NCBI GenBank assembly: GCA_963741715.1
Contig: CAVUJA010000002.1
Coordinates: 753,764 to 817,763 of the forward strand
Direction: 5' to 3'
DNA length: 64,000 nucleotides
Source of the DNA: an uncultured Acidobacteriota bacterium
GTDB taxonomy: Bacteria > Acidobacteriota > Vicinamibacteria > Vicinamibacterales > Fen-181
A model generated the notes under the pieces. The model saw only the letters and a program-made list of their open reading frames with translations, was not told where the DNA came from and searched no databases. Made by a program: the position numbers and the translations under genes. Positions 6,192 through 63,124 of this stretch are shown piece after piece; position 1 is the stretch's first letter, and each line of letters opens with the position of its first letter.

Positions 6192-7445
6192 ATGCGTACC
6201 CCATGGCGGACGTTGGCATGGCTCCTGGTTCTCTCGACGCTGGTTCCAGGGCTCGCCTTCGGACAGCGGCTCCGGCTCGTTGGCAGGATCGTCGACCCGC
6301 AGGGCAAGCCCATCGAGGGCGTGGAAGTGACGGCGACCTCGCCCGACGTCTCGACCTTCCGCGAAGTCCGCACGACCGACAAGAAGGGCAGCTTCACGAT
6401 CGACCTGCCGCAGAACGAGGTGGACTACACCTACAGGTTCGTCAAGGCAGGCTACGTGCCGCTCGACGCCAAGCAGCACTGGAGCCTCGAAGGCAGCCAG
6501 AAGTTCGACTGGACGATGCAGCCGGGCGCGTCCACGGCCGACAGCGCGGCCGCGCCGGTCACGTCCTCCGAGCCGGCCATCGTCGCGTACAACGCCGGCG
6601 TGGAGGCATTGAAGGCCAAGGATGCCCGTACCGCCGAGGCCAAGTTCAACGAGGCGGTCGGCCTCGATCCCAAGATGGTCCCCGCCTGGGTGGCGCTGAG
6701 CACGGTCCAGGTGCAGACGGGGCACAACAAGGAGGCGGCGGAGAGCGCCGAGAAGGCGATGGCCCTCGGCTCCAAGGACGAGGCGATGCTCACGGCCCGG
6801 TGGCAGGCCTACAAGAACCTGAAGGACACCGACAAGGCGGCGGCCGCGCTCAAGGACATGGAGGCGATCGGCCGCCGCGCCGAGGAGGCGAAGAAGTTCC
6901 ACAACGAGGGCGTGGCGCTGGCGAAGGCGGGCGACAACGCGGGAGCCTTCGGCAAGTTCCAGGAGGCGCTGAACCTCGACCCGACACTGCGCGCCTCGAT
7001 GGTGGGCATGGCCACCGCGGCCCTGAAACTGGGAAAGAACGCGGAGGCGGCGACGGCCGCCGAGAGCATCCTCAAGCTGGATCCCAGGAACGACCAGGCG
7101 CTCCGGATCCGCTACAACGCCTGCCTGGCCCTGGGCGACCCCGACCGGCTGTTCGACGCCCTGACCGGCCTGGCCGCGGTGGAGCCGACGGTGGCCAAGA
7201 ACGGGATGCTCAAGCTGGCGTTCGACGCGTACGATGCCAACGACAAAGCCAAGGCGAAGGCGCGCTTCCTGAAGGTCCTCGAGGTCGATCCGAACCAGCC
7301 GCAGGCCCACTACTACCTGGCGCTGGTCCTGGTGGCCGACGGCAACACGGCCGAGGCAAAGGCGCACCTCGAGAAGTTCATCGCCATCGCCCCGAATGCC
7401 GCCGAGGCCGCGAACGCCAAGGAAATGTTGAAGCAGCTCAAGTAG
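6192..7445 (+). CDS. Secreted CarboxypepD_reg-domain plus TPR-repeat protein
   Basis: ATG at 6192 after GAGAGG. Signal peptide MRTPWRTLAWLLVLSTLVPGLAFG. Then LVGRIVDPQGKPIEGVEVT (carboxypeptidase-regulatory-like fold) and multiple TPR-like helical repeats. Confidence 0.85.
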   Translation: MRTPWRTLAWLLVLSTLVPGLAFGQRLRLVGRIVDPQGKPIEGVEVTATSPDVSTFREVRTTDKKGSFTIDLPQNEVDYTYRFVKAGYVPLDAKQHWSLEGSQKFDWTMQPGASTADSAAAPVTSSEPAIVAYNAGVEALKAKDARTAEAKFNEAVGLDPKMVPAWVALSTVQVQTGHNKEAAESAEKAMALGSKDEAMLTARWQAYKNLKDTDKAAAALKDMEAIGRRAEEAKKFHNEGVALAKAGDNAGAFGKFQEALNLDPTLRASMVGMATAALKLGKNAEAATAAESILKLDPRNDQALRIRYNACLALGDPDRLFDALTGLAAVEPTVAKNGMLKLAFDAYDANDKAKAKARFLKVLEVDPNQPQAHYYLALVLVADGNTAEAKAHLEKFIAIAPNAAEAANAKEMLKQLK

Positions 7446-7555
7446 CTGGCAGCTGGCAGCCGGCAGCCTGACACGAAGGGCCCGCGGAACCCTCGGGCCC
7501 TTCGCGTTGTACGCGCGATCCGCTGGCGGCTGGCAGCGGGCGGCAGGCAGCTGGC
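7445..7555. repeat. GCTGGCA-type heptamer repeats (two blocks, 7445-7465 and 7521-7555)
   Basis: GCTGGCA GCTGGCA GCCGGCA starts at the stop codon of the TPR gene. A second in-phase block reads CGCTGGC GGCTGGC AGCGGGC GGCAGGC AGCTGGC. Both blocks end with GCCTGACACG. Confidence 0.8.
7475..7503 (+). terminator. Hairpin terminator candidate after the TPR gene
   Basis: GAAGGGCCC (7475-7483) pairs with GGGCCCTTC (7495-7503), 30 nt after the stop. It is followed by GCGTTGT, a weak U tract. Confidence 0.5.
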
Positions 7556-7633
7556 GGCCTGACACGCGTGGTCCGCTGCCCGGTGCTGCGTCCGTGATCG
7601 GCTGCCGGCTACCTGCTACTCCGTCCGTGGCAC

Positions 7634-7666
7634 AAAAAAAGGGGACGGCCCCGAAGGACCGTCCCC
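7634..7666 (-). terminator. Rho-independent terminator of the TonB-dependent receptor gene
   Basis: The minus strand reads GGGGACGGTCCTTCGGGGCCGTCCCC followed by TTTTTTT. It lies about 35 nt downstream of the stop at 7701. Confidence 0.85.
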
Positions 7667-7700: not shown

Positions 7701-10700
7701 CTAGAAGGTGAACTGCACGCTCGCGTGGAGGTAGCGGCCCAGCGAGTCGTACGTCCCGTAGAAGCCCGCGCCGTAGTCGTTCGGGCTCTGTCCGGGCGCC
7801 AGCGGCGGTTCCTTGTCGAACACGTTGTTGATGCCGCCCACGATCTGGATGCCCTTCCGCAGGTTGTACGTCACGCCCATGTCCATGTAGTTGTACGTGG
7901 GGATCTTGTCGATGTTGTTCGCCTTCAGCAACGCGTCCTGCCCCGGGACGAACAGCGCTTCCTGAGTACTCAGGACGTCCTGCGTGACGGGCCCCTGCAG
8001 GCGCCAGCCGACCGACAGGACGAACTTCCAGTTGGTCTCCCACGAGAAGCGCATCATGTGGCGCCAGGTCGGGGTCGGGATGCCGCAGGTGTTCCCGAAG
8101 AGGCCGACGCAGTCGTAGGAATACAGGCCGGTGTCGATGGTCTGCGCCATCAGGTAGGTGCCGATCATGTTCACCGACAAGAGGCCCTTGTCGCCCAAGG
8201 GGTGGCTGTAATTGCCGGTGATGTCCATGCCCCGCGAGCCCAGCTTGCCGACGTTCTGGTTGGTGGTGATCGTGTAGGCGTCGTTCGTCAACCACAACGA
8301 GCCGAACCGGTCGCGGTGAATCAGGCCGCACAGCAACGCGTTGCCGGTGGCCGCGCACTGGTTCTGGATGTCGTTCGCGCCGAGCGACCCGATGGTCTGG
8401 TCGATCTTGATGTCGTAGTAGTCGAGCGTCGTCGAGAAGCCCGCGAGCTTCCTGGGCGTCAGCACGAAGCCGACGGTGTACGTGTCGGCGGTTTCCGGCG
8501 AGAGGTTGGGGTTGCCGCCGCCGAGGGTATTGTACTGGTTGGCCGGGTTGTCAGGGACGTTGCCGTACTGCGCCGCGGAGACACCCTGCAGCGCGCACTG
8601 AGCCCGCGTCGAGACCGGGCTATCGCCGGAGCAGTTGTCCTGGCTGCCGTTGAGGCCGAGGCCCTGCGGCGTGTACAACTCGGTGATGTTGGGCGACCGG
8701 GTCGCACGGTTGTAGCCGAGGCGCAGCTTTACGTCCGGCACCGGCGTCCACGAACCCTGGATCTTGTAGGTCGAGTGGGTGCCCGTGCTGCTGTAGTTCG
8801 ACACGCGGTAGCCGAGTTCGAGGCTGAGGTCCTTGGCGAGCTTCGCGTCCTGCACGAACGGAATCACGCCTTCTGTATAGAACTCCTTGACGTTGTAGCT
8901 GCCCTCGACCGGCAGCGTCGGGCCGCCGGACCCGGCGCCGAGCGCCTGCTGGAAGGGCATGTCGGGGTGGACATACAGATACTCGTCGCGGTACTCGACG
9001 CCGAACGCCGCCTTGATGCCCTCCGTCGCCTTGGGCGACACCCAGCCGTAGTCCTTGAAGTCGGCAGAGACGCGCCCGTTGACCATGGCCGTCCGCGTGC
9101 CCGACATCAGCACCTCGGCCAGGCTCAGGTAGCCCAGGGCGGCTTGCGTGACCCCGCCCTTCTTGAAGATGTTCCACGGCACGCAGCCGGCGTTGCCGGA
9201 CAAGCAGTTTCCATCCGGACCAACGAGCAGCGCATCCTGGATGTTGGCGGCGTTGAGGTCGTTCGCATACTCCTGCGGCGAGTTCACCTGCGCCCACAGG
9301 AAGTACGCGTCGTAGCTCCACACCTTGTTGAGGTCGCCCTTCAGGCCCCACGTCGTGCGCCAGTCGGTGTGACGCAGCTTCGATACGCGGCCGCCGCCTT
9401 CCACGTTGCGCCGGCCAATCAACACGGTCGCGATGTCCGTGGGACCGTAACCTGCGGCCGTGCACAGCAGCTGTCTCTCCTGCGCGCTGAGCAGCGGGTT
9501 GTCGCAGTTCAACAGGCTGCTGTTGTTGAAGTCGCCCGACGGCGCAATCTGCGCGTCGGTGTAGTCGTCCATGAACATGAAGTCGCCGTAGGCCTTCAGC
9601 TTCGAGTTCCAGTCGTAGTTCAGGAAGCCGCCGCCGGCCCACCGCTTGTCGGGGCGCTGCATGAAGTTCGCAGGCGCGTAGTTATAGTTGTCCGAGGACT
9701 GGCGCGGCCGCATGGTGTCGCCGGTAGCCGAGTTCGGATCGAGGACGTAGTCCCCTACCTTCCTGTTCGCGGCGTTGTAGACCTGGAAGCGCCCGTATTG
9801 CCAGGTTCCCGAACCGCCGCACGTCGGGCCGTTCAAGGTCATGCCGCCGAGGACCGAGCAGTTCGTGTAGTCGCGCGCGTCCTTGGTGATCGCCGCGGTG
9901 TAGCGGTAGTCGAGGTAGACCGTCGCGTGGCCCTTGCCGTCGGCGAACTTGCCGCCGAGCGCCACGTTGAAGTCCATCGGCCCGCCGTTCCACATGCTGC
10001 CGGAGGGGTAGGGGAAGCCCGCCTTCTGGTTGATCGACTGCGCCAGCTGGTTGCTGTTGTTGTGCTGGTAGCCGCTGACCTGGACGCCGCCGCGAACGCC
10101 CGTGAAGTCCCTGTCGAGGACGAAGTTGACGACGCCGGCCACGGCGTCCGCGCCGTAAACCGACGACGCGCCGCCCGTCAGGACGTCGACGCGCTTGACG
10201 AGCGCCGAGGGGATGAAGTTCAAGTCGGGCGCGGTCGAGAACGCATCGCCCGAACCCATCCGGCGGCCGTCGAGAAGGACCAGGGTACGGTTGGTGCCGA
10301 GGTAGCGGAGGTCAACGGTCGCCGTGCCAGACGACCCGTTCGACACCGTCGAGTTCTGCGCCGCGAACACCTGCGGCAGGGTGGTCAGCAGGTCCTCGAT
10401 GCGGGTCATGCCCCGGTAGGTCAGCTCTTCCACCTCGAGGGTGGTGACCGGGCTCATGGCCTCCATGTTCGGGCGCGGAATCAGGGTGCCGGTGACCTGG
10501 ACCTGTTCGGACCGTGTGCCAATCTCGAGCTTCGCTTCCAGGACGACCGGCTGGCCGGCGGCCACGATCGCCTGATTCGTCTTGATGCCGAATCCCGAAA
10601 GTTCGAAGGTAACGGTATAGGTGCCGGGGTCCAGTTTGTCGATCGTGTATCTGCCGCTCGAATCCGTCACCGCCGTCCGAGTTGTGGTGCCAGCCTTCGC

Positions 10701-10874
10701 GGTGACCGTCACACCGGGCAGCATCGCACCCGTCGCGTCGCTGACCGAGCCCGTGATGCGCCCGGTACCCTGGGCGGCCGCAACCAGCGGCAGACCAAGC
10801 ACGAGCAACCAAATCAGCAATAACCGCCACGCTAGGGTCCAACGATGAGCCGCTGCCAGACGTTCACGATCCAT
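7701..10874 (-). CDS. TonB-dependent receptor with N-terminal CarboxypepD_reg domain
   Basis: ATG at 10874 is 5 nt after AAGGAGG. Signal peptide ...LLIWLLVLGLPLVAAAQG. Then ITGSVSDATGAMLPGVTVT, a plug region (VDVLTGGASSVYGADAVAGVVNFV) and a long beta-barrel ending ...ASVQFTF. Confidence 0.95.
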   Translation of the reverse strand: MDRERLAAAHRWTLAWRLLLIWLLVLGLPLVAAAQGTGRITGSVSDATGAMLPGVTVTAKAGTTTRTAVTDSSGRYTIDKLDPGTYTVTFELSGFGIKTNQAIVAAGQPVVLEAKLEIGTRSEQVQVTGTLIPRPNMEAMSPVTTLEVEELTYRGMTRIEDLLTTLPQVFAAQNSTVSNGSSGTATVDLRYLGTNRTLVLLDGRRMGSGDAFSTAPDLNFIPSALVKRVDVLTGGASSVYGADAVAGVVNFVLDRDFTGVRGGVQVSGYQHNNSNQLAQSINQKAGFPYPSGSMWNGGPMDFNVALGGKFADGKGHATVYLDYRYTAAITKDARDYTNCSVLGGMTLNGPTCGGSGTWQYGRFQVYNAANRKVGDYVLDPNSATGDTMRPRQSSDNYNYAPANFMQRPDKRWAGGGFLNYDWNSKLKAYGDFMFMDDYTDAQIAPSGDFNNSSLLNCDNPLLSAQERQLLCTAAGYGPTDIATVLIGRRNVEGGGRVSKLRHTDWRTTWGLKGDLNKVWSYDAYFLWAQVNSPQEYANDLNAANIQDALLVGPDGNCLSGNAGCVPWNIFKKGGVTQAALGYLSLAEVLMSGTRTAMVNGRVSADFKDYGWVSPKATEGIKAAFGVEYRDEYLYVHPDMPFQQALGAGSGGPTLPVEGSYNVKEFYTEGVIPFVQDAKLAKDLSLELGYRVSNYSSTGTHSTYKIQGSWTPVPDVKLRLGYNRATRSPNITELYTPQGLGLNGSQDNCSGDSPVSTRAQCALQGVSAAQYGNVPDNPANQYNTLGGGNPNLSPETADTYTVGFVLTPRKLAGFSTTLDYYDIKIDQTIGSLGANDIQNQCAATGNALLCGLIHRDRFGSLWLTNDAYTITTNQNVGKLGSRGMDITGNYSHPLGDKGLLSVNMIGTYLMAQTIDTGLYSYDCVGLFGNTCGIPTPTWRHMMRFSWETNWKFVLSVGWRLQGPVTQDVLSTQEALFVPGQDALLKANNIDKIPTYNYMDMGVTYNLRKGIQIVGGINNVFDKEPPLAPGQSPNDYGAGFYGTYDSLGRYLHASVQFTF

Positions 10875-11165
10875 AGGATCCTCCTTGGAGAGCCGTACCG
10901 GCCCCCATTGCCGCCTACCCGGGTTCGAGGTCGCTAATCGAATATCGCTACGAGACATGCCGATGGCGAATGAAACCGCCGTGATCAGGGCGAACTATAC
11001 GCAAGCGAGAGGCCATAGACGAGCTTTTTCGGCCGAGTAGATACTAACCCCTTTGTCAACAACGTGTTGTCGAATGTCGGCGGGACAGATTGTGGCGCCG
11101 TCCCCGCCAAATATTCATATGCTTGGATCCAGAGGGGTAAACCGATCCAAAGTTGAGGATCGGTT

Positions 11166-11260
11166 GGCCAACTGGGTAACTGGGTAACTGGGTAACTGAG
11201 CAACTCGCCAACTGATCAACTGGCCCCAAACTGGCCAACTCGCCAACTGGTCAACTGAGC
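11166..11260. repeat. Octamer tandem array NNYAACTG x11 (family F1, inverted orientation)
   Basis: GCCAACTG GGTAACTG x3 AGCAACTC GCCAACTG ATCAACTG ... GTCAACTG. This is the reverse complement of the CAGTTGNN array at 11343-11557. Confidence 0.9.
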
Positions 11261-11342
11261 ACCCTGCACGGCTGTTCAGCTGGGCCCAGTTCGCGAATTG
11301 ATTAGTTTGTGCCGTCTCGGGGTCAATTGTCCAGGTTAATCT

Positions 11343-11557
11343 CAGTTGAGCAGTGCCCAGTTGCCCAGGTTGCGCTTCTCCAGTTCTCCAGTTGGCCAAG
11401 TTCTCCAGTTGCCCAGTTGCGCAGTTCTCCAGTTCTCCAGTTCTCCAGTTCTCCAGTTGCGCAGTTCTCCAGTTGCCCAGTTGTTCAGTTCTCCAGTTGC
11501 CCAGTTGCCCAGTTGCCCAGTTATTCAGTTGTCCAGTTGCCCAGTTGCCTAGCTGCC
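11343..11557. repeat. Octamer tandem array CAGTTNNN, about 25 units (family F1)
   Basis: CAGTTGCC/CAGTTCTC/CAGTTGCG units are in phase from 11381 to 11549 and more degenerate from 11343. The array ends at the AEC transporter stop codon (11549-11551). Confidence 0.95.
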
Positions 11558-12463
11558 CTTCATCGCCGCGATGAGCAGCGTAACCGACACCGGGCTGGCG
11601 AGCGTCGAGAACAGCACGCAGGCGGTGACGAAGGACGGCGCGACGTCGAACTCGAGCGCGAGAATCGTGGTGAGCACTGCGCTCGGCATCCCCGACTGCA
11701 CGATGGCCGCCTGGCGCGCCGCGCCGGTCAGGCCCAGGACGTGCGTGGCGCCCACCGCGATGAGCGGCGTCACCACCAGCGTCAGCACGCTCGCCAGCAG
11801 CACGAGCCCCGGGCGGTCGGGCCACCCGCTCCGTTCCAGCTGCATCCCCAGCACGAGGATCATGACGGGCAGCGCCGCGCCGCTGAGCAGTTCGATCGGC
11901 CGCATCACCGGCGTCGGGATCCCGACGCCGAGGCCCAGCACCGCCCCCGCGGCAACGACGCCCCACACGGCCGGCACGCGAAGCACGCCCTTCGCCGCCG
12001 CGCCGAGGCTCCGCCGCCCGGCGGACGCGAGGAACACGCCCAGCGAATAGGTCGCAATCGCGTTGGCGACGAAGTAGACCGCCGCGTGCGCGAGCGCCTC
12101 GCGGCCGAATGCGAACAGGACGACGGGCAGGCCGTAGTTGCCGCTGTTCGAGAACATCACGACCAGCAGGAACCCGCTGAGGGTCGCGCGGTCGAGGCGG
12201 AGCGGCAGCGTCGCCAGGCGAGCGATGAGACCGACCCCGCCGATCACGGCGAACGTCAGCAGCATCATCCGCCCGAAGTCGCCCGCGCTGAGCGACGACG
12301 TGACGATCAGGTGGAAGACGAGGCACGGCGAGAGCGCGTTGAACGAGATTCGCGACACCGTGCGAACGTCTCCCCCGAGCACGCGGGCGATGGCGAAGCC
12401 CACCGCGGCCACGATGAAGATCGGCAGGACGTCGTTGGCGAAGATGGAGAGCAGCAGCGTCAC
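11549..12463 (-). CDS. AEC (auxin efflux carrier) family transporter
   Basis: 304-aa polytopic membrane ORF, MTLLLSIFANDVLPIFIVAAVGFAIARV..., with two homologous halves. GTG start. Confidence 0.85.
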   Translation of the reverse strand: MTLLLSIFANDVLPIFIVAAVGFAIARVLGGDVRTVSRISFNALSPCLVFHLIVTSSLSAGDFGRMMLLTFAVIGGVGLIARLATLPLRLDRATLSGFLLVVMFSNSGNYGLPVVLFAFGREALAHAAVYFVANAIATYSLGVFLASAGRRSLGAAAKGVLRVPAVWGVVAAGAVLGLGVGIPTPVMRPIELLSGAALPVMILVLGMQLERSGWPDRPGLVLLASVLTLVVTPLIAVGATHVLGLTGAARQAAIVQSGMPSAVLTTILALEFDVAPSFVTACVLFSTLASPVSVTLLIAAMKGS

Positions 12464-12481
12464 TGGGAGGGAATGATAGTA

Positions 12482-12649
<168 letters not shown>

Positions 12650-12882
12650 GACGAACGGCCGCGATTCGCAGTCGTGGGGTTGTGGGGCAGAGGGCCTTCA
12701 GGCCCGCCGATCGTCCCTCGACGCAGGCTCGGGGCGACCCTGAGCCTGCCGAAGGGTCGCGAGGCTGAAGCCCCGCGCCACAGCAGGCGCCCGCCGAATC
12801 GTGCACTGGCACCCTGGCCAGCTTCCAGGGCAACCCCGCCGAAACTTCCTTCATCCGTCATGACCCCGGCCTGGAATGATGT

Positions 12883-13359
12883 CTAGCGGCTCGTGAGCAC
12901 GCGCAGCGCCTGGACGAGGACCGCGATGCTGAGGGCGGCGGCGAGCAGCGCCGCGACGGGCCGGCGGCGCGTGAAGCCGCGCAGCCTGATCGAGAAGCGT
13001 ATCGCGATGTAGTACGCGACCGGCGTGAGGAACACGCCCGCGAACAGCGCGGAGACCACGGCGGAGGGCGCGAGGCCGCGCACGGCGAGCGTGACGGCGC
13101 CCGCCAGCGGGATCGCCAGCCCCGCGCAGCCCGCGGACTTCGGCCCGGGCAGGATCGCCTGGGCCGCGGCGAACGCGAGCGACACGAACACCACGGTGAG
13201 CGTCAGCGGTACGGCGGCCGAAGGGGCGCCCTCCGCGGCGGCCGGCGGCAGCACGGCGGCCAGCGCCTGCACGAAGGCCACGCCGCCCGCTGTGGTCGTC
13301 ACCCACGCGACGAACACGGACTCGAGAGGAGGGCGTCCGGGCTCGAGGTCTTGGCCCAC
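12883..13359 (-). CDS. Small hydrophobic membrane protein (4-5 predicted TM), function unknown
   Basis: 158-aa ORF rich in A/L/V/G TM-like segments, with GC3-rich codons. No motif recognised. GTG start is uncertain. Confidence 0.5.
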   Translation of the reverse strand: MGQDLEPGRPPLESVFVAWVTTTAGGVAFVQALAAVLPPAAAEGAPSAAVPLTLTVVFVSLAFAAAQAILPGPKSAGCAGLAIPLAGAVTLAVRGLAPSAVVSALFAGVFLTPVAYYIAIRFSIRLRGFTRRRPVAALLAAALSIAVLVQALRVLTSR

Positions 13360-13851: not shown

Positions 13852-13879
13852 GCCGCAGGTCGCAAGCCGCAAGGCGCAA
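13852..13879. repeat. Heptamer repeats GCCGCAG/GTCGCAA x4 (family F5)
   Basis: GCCGCAG GTCGCAA GCCGCAA GGCGCAA. Same unit family as 26511-26552. Confidence 0.8.
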
Positions 13880-20489: not shown

Positions 20490-20587
20490 GACGTGCGACT
20501 CGCGGCGTGCGACTTTCGACGTGCGACTGTTGACGTCCGACCTTCGGACGTGCGACCTTCGACGTGCGGCGTGCGACGTGCGCGTCG
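20490..20587. repeat. GACGTGCGAC-core repeats at about 14-nt period (family F7)
   Basis: About 8 copies of (G)ACGTGCGAC(T/C) lie between the methyltransferase stop and the OYE gene start. Confidence 0.8.
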
Positions 20588-20691
20588 TCCCGGAACTCCC
20601 GAACGCCGTGCTGGCCGCAAGTCGCCGGCCGCACGCCGCAGGCCGACATCGAGGTCGACCCGTGGACTGTTGACTCTCGGTGGTGTCGTCC

Positions 20692-26471: not shown

Positions 26472-26552
26472 CGGCTTGCGGCTTGCGACGTGCGCCCCTT
26501 GCGGCGCAATGTCGCAAGTCGCAAGCCGCGAGTCGCAGGCCGCAGGCCGCAA
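26472..26552. repeat. Inverted heptamer arrays CGGCTTG x2 versus GTCGCAA/GCCGCAG x6 (family F5)
   Basis: Left arm 26472-26485. Right arm 26511-26552 reads GTCGCAA GTCGCAA GCCGCGA GTCGCAG GCCGCAG GCCGCAA. The left arm is the reverse complement of the unit. It lies between the GNAT stop and the Aas-like start. Confidence 0.9.
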
Positions 26553-26560
26553 GCCGGTCT

Positions 26561-52158: not shown

Positions 52159-52162
52159 AGGA

Positions 52163-52258
52163 GGAGTCAGGAGTCGGGATTCAGGAGTCAGTCAGGAGTC
52201 AGGACCGGGGATGTGCGGGCGGGTGACGCCCCGAATCCCGAATCCTGGCTCCCGACTC
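52163..52258. repeat. Inverted heptamer arrays GGAGTCA/GGATTCA versus CCGAATC/CCGACTC (family F4)
   Basis: Left arm 52163-52201: GGAGTCA GGAGTCG GGATTCA GGAGTCA GTCA GGAGTCA. Right arm 52231-52258: CCGAATC CCGAATC CTGGCTC CCGACTC. The arms are complementary. The left arm ends 5 nt from the permease start codon. Confidence 0.9.
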
Positions 52259-52277
52259 CTTCTACCGTTACGAGCGT

Positions 52278-54728: not shown

Positions 54729-54856
54729 GGTTCCAGTTCCCCGAGTTCCCCGAGTTCCCCAGTTGCCCAGTTCCCCAGTTGCCCAGTTTTCCAGTTGGCC
54801 AGTTACCTCAGTTCCCCAGTTGCCCAGTTGGCCAGTTGCCCAGTTCCCTAGTTCTC
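54729..54856. repeat. Octamer array CCAGTTNN, about 15 units (family F1)
   Basis: CCAGTTGC/CCAGTTCC/CCAGTTGG units. Same family as 11343-11557, about 43 kb away. It overlaps the stop codon (54848-54850) of the upstream gene and lies between it and pspA. Confidence 0.95.
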
Positions 54857-55504
54857 CGTCCCCGACGGGTCGTGCAGGCGCGGCGAGGCCTGGACGACCC
54901 GGGCCACCGCCTCCTGGCCGAAGAACTCCAGCACCTTCTGGATCTCGAGCTTCCTCCCGTTGCAGGCCGCCGCGATCCCCTGCTGCTGCTGGACCTGCTG
55001 CTCCATCTTCGCCCGCAGCTTCCGCACTTCCTCTTCGAACTGGGCGATGCGGTGGGTCGCTTCCTCCAGCACCTGCTGGGTGTCGCCGGCGCTCTTGCGG
55101 ATGTACCCCTCGAGCGCCTGGATCTCGGCCACACCCGTCTCGATGATGTTGTCGATGGGGACGCCGAACGCCTTGAGCGAAGCCTCGACGATCTGCTTCT
55201 TCACTGCGACCGGGGTGTCGGCAGGCAGGCTGGAAAGCAACTGCTGCGCTTTTCCCACGCGCTCGCGCTCGGCCTCGTCGATCCCGGCGGCGCCGAACAC
55301 CTGGTCGAACGCCACCTGGCCGTCGGTGGGCGGCGGCGGCTCCTGCTGGAAGATCGGGGGCGTCGGCTGCGCCGCGGCGGCCGCGGCAATCGACGCCGCG
55401 TCTGCGTCGCCTGCCGCCGCGCCGTCGTCGGGCGCCGGCTGCGCCTCGTCCTGAACGATGAACCAGCCGAGGACGGTCGAGCCCCAGGTCTTCTTGTCGG
55501 CCAT
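54848..55504 (-). CDS. Hypothetical protein: N-terminal amphipathic segment, Ala/Pro-rich linker, C-terminal coiled coil
   Basis: ATG at 55504 (MADKKTWGSTVLGWFIVQDE...). The conserved-looking C-terminal half reads FDQVFGAAGIDEAERERVGKAQQLLSSLP...KKQIVEASLKAFGVPIDNII...CNGRKLEIQKVLEFFG. GC3-rich codons. No family recognised. Confidence 0.65.
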   Translation of the reverse strand: MADKKTWGSTVLGWFIVQDEAQPAPDDGAAAGDADAASIAAAAAAQPTPPIFQQEPPPPTDGQVAFDQVFGAAGIDEAERERVGKAQQLLSSLPADTPVAVKKQIVEASLKAFGVPIDNIIETGVAEIQALEGYIRKSAGDTQQVLEEATHRIAQFEEEVRKLRAKMEQQVQQQQGIAAACNGRKLEIQKVLEFFGQEAVARVVQASPRLHDPSGTEN

Positions 55505-55557
55505 GAACTCCCCCGCGAGTGACGGGCGCATGATAACACGCGCGTCGAAAGCCCCGG

Positions 55558-56568
55558 TCAGAACGGCTGCCGTTCGTCGAGCACCATCTCCACCTTCAGC
55601 CACCAGCGCGGCTGATAGACGATGAACACCGGCACGTCTGCCAGCGGTGCGTCGATCCCGCAGACGATCGTGAAGGCCTCGGTCCAGTCTTCGCCGCGCG
55701 TCCTGATCTCGAACCGGGACGTCAGCAGGCGCGGATACGTCACGCCGCCGTAGGAGGCCGACCTCTCGATCCCCGACGACACCCGCGTCAGATCGTACTG
55801 TTTCTTGTAGAAGACATACGAGAGGCTCTTGCGGCCCGGCGCCCGCGACGTCGCCTTCACCGTCTCGACGCCCTCGTGCAGCAGTTCCGTGAGGCCGAGC
55901 AGCATGCCGCGCCGCCCGCCCGGCGGCACGGGCACGATACGCGAAGTCGGAGGCGCCGGCGCGGCCAGCAATCGCTCCATCAACGGTGCGAGTTCACGGT
56001 AGGAGTAGTCGCGGCCGACGTTCGCTTCGCTCACCCGCGCCACGGATTCGGACGCGTCCACCCTGGCCCGGATCATCTTGAAGTACACCCCGCCGGCAGC
56101 CTCGCTCGCCACGTTCGATTTCGCCTGCTCGAGCGTCTCCTCGTCGCTCTTCTTCATCACGCCGAGCACGGAGACCGCCGAGCCGTCATCCTCCTCCATG
56201 ACGAAGCCCCACCGGTTGGTCTGCCGCGGCGCCCGGGCGGGGTCGGATCCGATCAACAGGTCGCAGCCCGTTTGCCCGAGTGTGTCGCGCCGCCACCGGA
56301 TGCGGGCAGAGCCGATGTTGTCCTTCCCGATCCAGAACAGCAACAGCGGGCGAATCTTCCCGGCGAGGCGGTAGCGGTGTTCCGCGACGACCGGGAGCTT
56401 GCCCTCGAGAAGCGAGGCCGTTTCCAGGGCAGGGGTCAGAACGCCGGAGACGGGCTGCGGGGTGGTACCCGATTGCGCGCCCGCGGAGGCCCACAACGCG
56501 GTGCACAGAAGGCCCGCGACCAGGACCCGGAGGACGGTTCCGGGGAGGCGGACCGGCAGGGGATTCAT
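55558..56568 (-). CDS. Hypothetical secreted protein (336 aa)
   Basis: ATG at 56568. Signal peptide MNPLPVRLPGTVLRVLVAGLLCTALWASAGAQS, then a beta-rich mature part. No family recognised. First gene of the same-strand cluster. Confidence 0.65.
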   Translation of the reverse strand: MNPLPVRLPGTVLRVLVAGLLCTALWASAGAQSGTTPQPVSGVLTPALETASLLEGKLPVVAEHRYRLAGKIRPLLLFWIGKDNIGSARIRWRRDTLGQTGCDLLIGSDPARAPRQTNRWGFVMEEDDGSAVSVLGVMKKSDEETLEQAKSNVASEAAGGVYFKMIRARVDASESVARVSEANVGRDYSYRELAPLMERLLAAPAPPTSRIVPVPPGGRRGMLLGLTELLHEGVETVKATSRAPGRKSLSYVFYKKQYDLTRVSSGIERSASYGGVTYPRLLTSRFEIRTRGEDWTEAFTIVCGIDAPLADVPVFIVYQPRWWLKVEMVLDERQPF

Positions 56569-56728: not shown

Positions 56729-56798
56729 GTGCATTCGCCGTCGTGCATGGTGCATTCTGCGTTGTGCATTGTGCATTGTGCATTGTGCATTGTGCATT
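56729..56798. repeat. Heptamer array GTGCATT, 10 in-phase units with 5 perfect at the 3' end (family F3)
   Basis: GTGCATT CGCCGTC GTGCATG GTGCATT CTGCGTT GTGCATT x5. It sits in the divergent region between the 56568 (-) and 56825 (+) genes. Confidence 0.95.
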
Positions 56799-59715: not shown

Positions 59716-59745
59716 CAAGGGTGGCAAAGAACCGCGTCAACGCGC

Positions 59746-59852
59746 AATGCACAATGCACAATGCAAAACGTAGAGACACTCGCCGCGGATCGCCCGTCGC
59801 TCTCTGCGCGTCGCATTCCCCATTGTGCATTCTGCATTTGGCATTGTGCATT
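59746..59852. repeat. Inverted heptamer arrays AATGCAC x3 versus NNGCATT x6 (family F3) inside the czc operon
   Basis: Left 59746-59766: AATGCAC AATGCAC AATGCAA. Right 59811-59852: TCGCATT CCCCATT GTGCATT CTGCATT TGGCATT GTGCATT. The arms are mutually complementary and lie in the 182-nt czcB-czcA gap. Confidence 0.9.
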
Positions 59853-63038: not shown

Positions 63039-63124
63039 GTGGCTACCGGCTGGTGGCTCGTGGATGGTGCACACGCGACGCGCCAGCCACGAGCCACGAG
63101 CAACCACTGGCCACTAGCCACTAC
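63039..63124. repeat. Inverted heptamer arrays GTGGCTA-type versus GCCACGA/CTAGCCA-type (family F2) between convergent czcA and glyA
   Basis: Left 63039-63066: GTGGCTA CCGGCTG GTGGCTC GTGGATG. Right 63086-63124: GCCACGA GCCACGA GCAACCA CTGGCCA CTAGCCA CTAC. Same unit as the 24-copy array at 12482-12649. Confidence 0.9.

Follow-up and report, generated by a model that had tools for sequence, protein, structure and literature searches.

A pair of inverted octamer arrays at the 3′ end of an AEC transporter gene in an uncultured Acidobacteriota bacterium

What does a structure made of two long, facing arrays of an 8-nt repeat do between two genes, and how did it come to be there? Such a structure lies at positions 11165-11558 of a 64-kb stretch of DNA from an uncultured Acidobacteriota bacterium (the window; contig CAVUJA010000002.1), directly after an AEC-family transporter gene and upstream of a TonB-dependent receptor gene, both on the minus strand. 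A sequence-only reading of the locus had described it as a giant imperfect palindrome that filled most of a 675-bp gap, and the repeats indeed take up 392 bp (58%) of the 674 bp up to the TonB-receptor start. We find that this is a pair of inverted arrays of a long-unit simple sequence repeat (SSR) with an 8-nt unit, of a kind that is abundant in the lineage and known from Xanthomonas and cyanobacteria, and that the 392-bp structure is neither a promoter element nor a phase-variation switch nor specific to TonB receptors. Our analysis gives roughly even odds (probability of about 0.5) to the reading that slippage-driven inverted arrays have given the AEC 3′ untranslated region (UTR) a long, sloppy hairpin, which probably acts as a 3′-end barrier.

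Two facing arrays and the AEC stop codon

The locus comprises the following features, from the AEC gene to the TonB-receptor gene.

11549-12463, minus strand: AEC-family transporter gene (Pfam Mem_trans, E 1.2e-19; list of open reading frames (ORFs) and Pfam)
11549-11551, minus strand: AEC stop codon TAG, inside the final unit, which is degenerate and reads GGCAGCTAG on the minus strand
11343-11558: right array, about 27 units CAGTTNNN on the plus strand (period 8, 27.1 copies, 76% matches)
11262-11342: spacer, 81 nt of unique sequence in which a few decayed units remain at the edges
11165-11261: left array, about 12 units NNYAACTG on the plus strand, reverse complement CAGTTRNN (period 8, 11.8 copies, 75% matches)
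11120-11165, minus strand: conserved GATCC / GGATC / GATCC element (counterpart at 10914-10960 in the related locus L004)
10875-11119, minus strand: remaining intergenic region, homologous by alignment to the AEC-TonB region of L004
7701-10874, minus strand: TonB-dependent receptor gene (CarboxypepD_reg, Plug and beta-barrel; Pfam)

Arrays were called with Tandem Repeats Finder (TRF) and then parsed into units. The TRF consensus units TGGGCAAC and CAGTTGCC are reverse complements of each other, which, together with the sequence, confirms two facing reverse-complement octamer arrays as first described; the spacer of about 80 nt is likewise borne out, and the earlier count of about 11 + 25 units had the right order of size while being slightly low (11.8 + 27.1 by TRF). 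The left array holds GGTAACTG three times, GCCAACTG, ATCAACTG and others, among them one 11-nt unit; read as the reverse complement, these become CAGTTACC (three times), CAGTTGGC and others. The right array holds CAGTTCTC seven times, CAGTTGCC six times, CAGTTGCG twice and others. In the unit table, the CAGTT core is almost invariant in both arms and unit positions 6-8 vary. The arms are unequal, with 97 nt on the left and 216 nt on the right, and their unit variants differ, only the CAGTT/AACTG core being common to both. Using a two-unit probe, CAGTTGCCCAGTTG, with up to two mismatches, we obtained 32 matches in the window compared to 0.26 expected from shuffles, and every match fell in the left array, the right array or a third array at 54733-54854. 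The observation is real and statistically robust, and the structure is the largest example in the material that we examined.

The right array ends exactly at the AEC stop codon, as had been claimed, with the TAG sitting in the last unit such that the array supplies the stop. The AEC protein ends in ...LLIAAMKGS* in the window as opposed to ...LLIAALK* in L004 (or similar in orthologues), the last two codons (Gly-Ser) and the stop coming from the array; AEC orthologues in metagenome-assembled genomes of Acidobacteriota reach 81-82% amino-acid identity. Because the consensus unit contains no stop codon in any frame, mechanical ORFs appear at 11346-11552 (+), 11353-11574 (+) and 11115-12326 (−), and the view that these repeat-peptide ORFs are spurious holds. 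We rejected a coding reading of the repeats, since a period of 8 together with units of 9, 11, 15, 17 and 23 nt breaks any frame. A phase-variation (contingency) SSR was rejected as well, given that the array follows the stop codon and lies outside the intergenic sequence conserved with L004; although its period of 8 is out of frame, the array is non-coding.

The state before the arrays can be read from L004, which has the matching gene order (the small ORF g12883, AEC, TonB receptor) yet no array. The whole AEC-TonB intergenic region of L004 aligns with window positions 10875-11165, i.e., the 290 nt to the left of the repeats, including the AAGGAGG ribosome-binding site that in the window lies at 10880-10886, upstream of the TonB-receptor ATG at 10874. 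The array takes the place of ~14 nt that follow the AEC stop in L004. By this alignment, the 392 bp are shown to be a lineage-specific insertion or expansion at the AEC stop codon. As the L004 intergenic region aligns outside the repeats, the TonB-receptor promoter lies outside them too, and the promoter and leader are likely located at about 10875-11120. The GATCC element, which adjoins the repeats in the window and begins 14 nt after the AEC stop in L004, contains a hairpin (11140-11165) whose 9-bp stem (AACCGATCC / GGATCGGTT) closes a loop of 8 nt and after which the minus-strand RNA reads UUUA, and folds at −27.9 kcal/mol (z −2.1). It can form two mutually exclusive hairpins and is found upstream of the TonB-receptor gene in both the window and L004. 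It could be the AEC terminator or a leader element of the TonB-receptor gene.

Other classes of repeats did not fit the 392-bp structure. A miniature inverted-repeat transposable element (MITE) or other mobile element with terminal inverted repeats was rejected, as the spacer is unique and no flanking direct duplication was seen on reading the sequence; a blastn-short search with 11255-11350 returned only the self-match, with no further copy of the spacer in the window or in 200 loci. The contiguous 8-mers are not a CRISPR array, which has repeats of 23-50 nt split by unique spacers, and a tandem array of 8-mers is not a member of the repetitive extragenic palindromes (REP) or bacterial interspersed mosaic elements (BIME), which consist of a dispersed imperfect palindrome of 20-40 nt. 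No three-tetrad G-quadruplex motif, (G3N1-7)x3G3, occurs on either strand of either array, and an Rfam search of 10500-13000 at E ≤ 1 gave no relevant family. What the locus does contain are head-to-tail tandem copies of a 6-9-nt unit, as in the class of intergenic long-unit SSRs (STRR-like, or "heptamer excess").

Pairing of the arms and the scarcity of terminators

Folded as RNA, the plus strand of the structure reached a minimum free energy (MFE) of −177.3 kcal/mol (z −9.0 relative to dinucleotide shuffles) and the minus strand −165.1 kcal/mol (z −5.7), while the plus strand folded as DNA reached −78.1 kcal/mol (z −5.8). With MFE values far below those of composition-matched shuffles on both strands, the proposed potential for a long RNA hairpin is well founded. 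Of the 97 bases in the left array, 75-80 are paired with the distal portion of the right array (~11441-11551) in the MFE structure, and a large internal region is formed by the spacer together with another ~100 nt of the right array. When aligned locally, the two arms are at best ~80% identical.

The order of the units does not contribute to this pairing. Upon splitting both arrays into units and shuffling their order within each array (60 shuffles), we obtained an MFE of −171.2 ± 4.9 kcal/mol for the plus strand, compared to −177.3 for the native order, and of −165.8 ± 4.1 kcal/mol for the minus strand, compared to −165.1. Flipping the right array, by contrast, cost the fold ~42 kcal/mol (−135.4 vs −177.3). 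The pairing potential hence arises because the arrays are built of complementary cores and not because of mirror symmetry. Of the palindrome first proposed, the inverted arrays with strong pairing remain, and the mirror symmetry does not; in the comparison with shuffled arrays that the sequence-only reading had singled out, the native pairing is clearly better than that of dinucleotide shuffles and no better than that of unit-order shuffles. Extrusion of a cruciform from duplex DNA, which had been raised as well, is unlikely in light of established cruciform kinetics, given the 81-nt non-palindromic spacer and arms that are only ~80% complementary. The realistic structure is a hairpin in RNA or in single-stranded DNA.

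A scan for terminators found nothing at 11100-11560, nor was a sigma-70 promoter found inside the arrays. Canonical terminators with a hairpin and a U-tract were not commoner than in shuffles, with a single convincing case in 60 kb, indicating that most 3′ ends need another element.

7641-7666, minus strand: canonical intrinsic terminator after the TonB-receptor gene, with an 11-bp GC stem and a T7 tail

This terminator looks quite unlike the 392-bp structure, which we rejected as an intrinsic terminator owing to its arms of ~97 nt, its 81-nt spacer and the lack of a U-tract. It shares with intrinsic terminators in general a hairpin directly downstream of a stop codon, whereas these have arms of 5-20 bp and a loop of 3-8 nt, as compared to ~97-nt arms, a loop of at least 81 nt and register-ambiguous pairing here.

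Related arrays in the window, the lineage and other bacteria

The locus is one of many. About 15 intergenic arrays of period 7 or 8 lie in the window, at least five of which are inverted pairs; for about nine, the 3′ end of a gene is no more than 30 nt away, and in several cases the array overlaps the stop codon. The unit families in the window include seven or more besides the octamer: TAGTGGC, GACGTGC, CTGCCTA, TCTGCAT, AGGAGTC, CGCAAGC and AGCTGGC.

54733-54854: third CAGTT-N3 octamer array, ~15 units, no inverted partner (TRF, pattern matches)
12480-12648: heptamer array (TAGTGGC/TGGTGGC), 24 copies, on the other side of the AEC gene (TRF)
52162-52260, 63048-63122, 26472-26556, 20490-20640 and 7444-7610: other inverted heptamer pairs, whose units differ from pair to pair
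59745-59765 / 59821-59852: heptamers CAATGCA / CATTGTG as an inverted pair, in the 182 nt that separate an HlyD-type membrane-fusion gene from an AcrB-family gene

The genes beside the window arrays are unrelated to each other (AcrB, HlyD-type, PspA, ABC ATPase, OmpA-like, methyltransferase, OYE and an AMP-binding enzyme), and no second TonB receptor adjoins an array in the window. Together with the array-free L004, this removes the link to the TonB receptor that the earlier reading had drawn. The pair at 59745-59852 lies within a probable efflux operon, where a hairpin for mRNA stability or attenuation probably fits better than a full terminator. Some unit families turn up at more than one locus: AATGCAC is found at 56743 as well as 59745/59821, and AAGCCGC both at 13852 and at 26513. 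The heptamer array at 12480-12648 ends 16 nt upstream of the AEC GTG start and has a −35-like hexamer inside it; a −10-like TATCAT stands 9 nt before the GTG, a leaderless-type geometry. The same TATCAT-N9-GTG occurs in L004, where a ~57-bp hairpin repeat in ~4 copies stands instead of the heptamers.

Class statistics were drawn from 1.48 Mb in total, comprising the window plus 80 loci that surround AEC orthologues in related Acidobacteriota, with crude gene calls based on GC content at third codon positions for positional counts. This sample contains 144 arrays, of which 106 have period 7. An inverted partner within 250 nt was found for 68 of the 144, as compared to ~10 expected from a permutation with k-mers of an unrelated array, and direct partners numbered 21, as compared to ~10.5 expected. 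Most arrays are non-coding (128/141). Their density per kb of intergenic DNA was 0.19 between divergent genes, 0.59 between co-directional genes and 0.47 between convergent genes, and 33 of 79 co-directional arrays lay within 26 nt of the upstream stop. Among 97 inverted pairs from the window and L001-L200 (with kinship ignored), the 5′ arm had G over C in 59 vs 29 and was purine-rich in 54 vs 26; at 11165-11558 itself, the 5′ arm shows a G-C skew of ~0 and a purine excess of 0.12. The polarity of the 5′ arms has the same sense as in the convergent G-rich pairs of Xanthomonas and hints at a polar mode of origin.

Orthologous AEC-downstream sites carry arrays of other units. Inverted arrays of the unit GCGATCKT occur there in three different species (5.5 copies in L003, 10.5 in L007 and 6.1 in L009), and inverted arrays of GGCTCMG in L005 and L008. 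The arrays of these five loci occupy the space from the stop codon to the CCTGATATCCT-N7-9-ATG/GTG start region of the next gene. The motif CCTGATATCCT, with ATG or GTG 7-9 nt on, is conserved in L003, L005, L007, L008, L067 and L002, ~20-200 nt past the AEC stop, and L067 has the same downstream promoter ~12 nt after the AEC stop without an array. In sequence, CCTGATATCCT looks like an extended −10 promoter that would give a leaderless mRNA, and the arrays reach right up to it. Arrays at the AEC-downstream site number ~11 in 81 loci, which by a rough estimate is about the background per intergenic region, and we claim no site-specific selection.

The CAGTT octamer has its own distribution. 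The third array at 54733-54854, which overlaps the stop of an ORF at 54848-55603 (−), precedes a PspA/IM30 gene by 63 nt and also carries a 57-bp higher-order duplication. No CAGTT-N3 array was found in the 80 related loci, and hence the unit is not common to the sampled relatives. When metagenomes were scanned for period-8 arrays of four CAGTT cores, CAGTT-core octamer arrays were found on at least 120 contigs with a GC content of 0.32-0.69; this shows that the octamer type is widespread, its abundance not being readable as enrichment in a scan that covered CAGTT cores alone. One high-GC contig (L096) has a closely similar inverted pair, (GGAGAACT)12 ... (CCAGTTCA)10. Very long octamer arrays of the AACTG type were seen in L160 (725-1697, 122 copies), L157 (5505-5875, 46 copies) and L153 (3513-3828, 40 copies).

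Short-unit intergenic arrays have reportedly been known since the cyanobacterial STRR sequences of 1990, when Mazel et al. are said to have described STRR heptamers with CCCCAGT as STRR1. Like STRRs, the window arrays are intergenic, consist of tandem 7-nt units and fall into several unit families in one genome; the structure at 11165-11558 differs in its period of 8. STRR1 is one base of length apart from the CCCCAGTT/GCCCAGTT unit of the window, which does not imply common descent. For the GGGGAYT heptamer repeats of Nostoc, few paired inverted arrays were reported (PMC4692102). The excess of heptamers in bacteria has been ascribed to polymerase slippage (Mrazek 2007, as cited in PMC4692102), and in 2025 tandem repeats were again reported to be generally enriched in the intergenic DNA of prokaryotes (PMC12418385).

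The closest likeness in arrangement is with the GGGAATC heptamers of Xanthomonas (Rehm et al. 2015; PMC4692102). These occupy ~185 sites, 89-93% of them intergenic and at a mean of 28 nt from the upstream ORF, and 70-75 of the sites consist of two nearby opposite-strand arrays able to form stem-loops, described as convergent G-rich repeats. The sites are under-represented between divergent genes, have functionally unrelated neighbours, vary in length and sequence between close relatives and are mostly transcribed, with no function found (PMC4692102). Intergenic bias, inverted pairs, rarity between divergent genes and unrelated neighbours all hold for the arrays studied here, and at our locus opposite-strand arrays of one unit lie close together, overlapping the AEC stop at 290 nt from the TonB start. 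In contrast to the single family of G-tract heptamers in Xanthomonas, the unit at 11165-11558 is an 8-nt unit with a CAGTT core and without a G-quadruplex motif, the genome uses many unit families, the host belongs to the phylum Acidobacteriota, and the copy numbers of 27 + 12 exceed the Xanthomonas maximum of 26.

The AACTG core is shared with the TAACTGA direct repeats of Beggiatoaceae, cyanobacteria and Bacteroidetes, for which a binding protein was proposed (MacGregor 2015; PMC4679880). Those repeats mostly have 2-6 copies (up to 43 in some species), lie a few nt upstream of start codons and are almost never inverted, with one indirect repeat in 170 sets (PMC4679880). Our left array includes GGTAACTG three times and one TAACTGAG; unlike the heptamers before starts, it has period 8, stands at a 3′ end, is part of an inverted pair and contains a single TAACTGA. 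In the literature that we searched, with subscription journals mostly outside its scope, we found no paper on such arrays in Acidobacteria.

Origin and possible role of the arrays

We suggest, at the even odds given above, that each arm would grow and be homogenised independently by replication slippage or unequal exchange, and that the result would act at the level of RNA. The AEC transcript, which as a minus-strand RNA would meet the right array first, would run through (GGCAACUG)n, the spacer and then (CAGUUGNC)m, and would fold in many registers into a long imperfect hairpin with ~75 inter-arm base pairs, followed by the conserved 9-bp hairpin. Such a 3′-UTR hairpin may block 3′-to-5′ exonucleases, as enterobacterial REP/BIME hairpins do, and may impede read-through into the TonB-receptor promoter region. 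REP and BIME elements, studied in the 1980s by Higgins, Newbury and colleagues, are reportedly extragenic transcribed hairpin repeats that shield the mRNA upstream of them against 3′ exonucleases; each REP consists of a single conserved sequence, an imperfect palindrome of 20-40 nt, and is mobilised by RAYT transposases. They offer a functional analogy to the 392-bp structure as 3′-end or intercistronic hairpins, often of alternating orientation, and differ from it in being a single palindrome rather than tandem 7-9-nt units. The enrichment of arrays where transcripts end, the scarcity of canonical terminators and the inverted pair between the HlyD-type and AcrB genes lend indirect support to a role as a 3′-end barrier.

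Several observations weigh against such a barrier. The closest AEC orthologues (L001, L002, L004 and L067) have no array immediately downstream of the stop, the big hairpin has no U-tract behind it, and a shuffled unit order pairs as well as the native one. With 76 of the 144 arrays lacking an inverted partner, including those at 12480-12648 (24 copies) and 54733-54854, hairpin formation cannot be a general property of the class. A comparison of L003 with L007 shows no compensation between the two arms of a species at the variable position of the unit: arm 1 of L003 (10924-11030) would pair perfectly with arm 2 of L007 (10927-11099), and arm 1 of L007 with arm 2 of L003, and thus selection for precise pairing is not visible. 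Lastly, the metagenomic arrays of L096 and L114, which belong to the same unit family, lie nearer to the start of the downstream gene than to the upstream stop.

A possible, if tentative, account of these observations is that the arrays are a neutral or selfish by-product, in which 7-9-nt units expand by polymerase slippage wherever they are tolerated and the hairpin potential has no function. It agrees with the irrelevance of unit order to folding, with unequal arms that drift independently, with arrays that stop at constrained sequence (the stop codon on one side, a conserved element or core promoter on the other), with the absence of the array in close relatives and with the dominance of period 7 (106/144), as in the bacterial heptamer excess so far as that is reported at second hand; the depletion in divergent promoter regions would be expected from tolerance alone. 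Yet inverted partners are ~7 times as frequent as expected, and slippage alone makes no reverse-complement array beside a direct one. Nor does a by-product readily explain why one unit family persists at the same site across species (L003/L007/L009), or why, despite variable positions 6-8, both arms and a third array 43 kb away have retained the CAGTT core. The latter pattern, an almost invariant CAGTT with free positions 6-8 in three separate arrays, would be natural if the DNA itself were the element, with CAGTT as a site for a DNA-binding or a single-stranded DNA- or RNA-binding protein, or with the structure as a cruciform, replication pause site or domain barrier. The same-core octamer arrays on at least 120 metagenome contigs (GC 0.32-0.69) and the binding protein proposed for the TAACTGA arrays with their AACTG core (PMC4679880) point in the same direction. 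We nevertheless regard a DNA-level element as quite unlikely: with at least seven other unit families in the 64-kb window, no single factor explains the class, the 80 related loci contain no CAGTT-N3 array and the metagenome abundance is not readable as enrichment, and the 81-nt spacer, the ~80% arm identity and the lack of a three-tetrad G-quadruplex motif speak against a cruciform or quadruplex.

The excess of inverted pairs over chance is what a polar repair process would produce, if scars of double-strand-break repair or fold-back synthesis extended both 3′ ends with the same unit to give 5′-(U)n ... (rcU)m-3′. Complete modules in very short intergenic regions (L007 as compared to the ~12 nt of L067, and the window as compared to L004) are consistent with this, as are the 5′-arm bias in the 97 pairs (59 vs 29 for G over C, 54 vs 26 for purines) and the convergent G-rich pairs of Xanthomonas (PMC4692102). 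Against it stand a polarity of only ~2:1 with kinship ignored, a G-C skew of ~0 at 11165-11558 and the fact that no mirror order of units remains, and we consider such an origin very improbable. An assembly artefact, with the repeat length or the inverted arrangement arising from misassembly, is conceivable in that arrays of short units spanning 100-200 bp are difficult to reconstruct from short reads. It is extremely improbable here, given that many unit variants make the sequence non-degenerate, that the flanks are collinear with L004 and that over 90 independent loci, taken from many assemblies and in part from large contigs of 0.3-6 Mb, show the same architecture. As an unlikely extension, which we offer as speculation, inverted 7-9-nt arrays might be a distinct, actively generated feature of Acidobacteriota and several other phyla, in which a polar process would add purine- or G-rich units on both sides of a break or hairpin seed and so make expandable, sequence-arbitrary 3′-end or intercistronic RNA barriers in terminator-poor genomes; the 392 bp would then be a recent insertion and the largest such module seen.

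The locus adds three points: these arrays abound in uncultured soil Acidobacteriota, where each genome has many unit families; about half of them come in inverted pairs; and an array-free syntenic locus, L004, gives the pre-insertion state to the nucleotide. For annotation, the arrays matter as a source of long spurious ORFs and because a stop codon can be displaced by them, which is the case for AEC. If their hairpins act as 3′-end barriers, the arrays would bear on how transcripts are ended and stabilised in high-GC bacteria with few canonical terminators.

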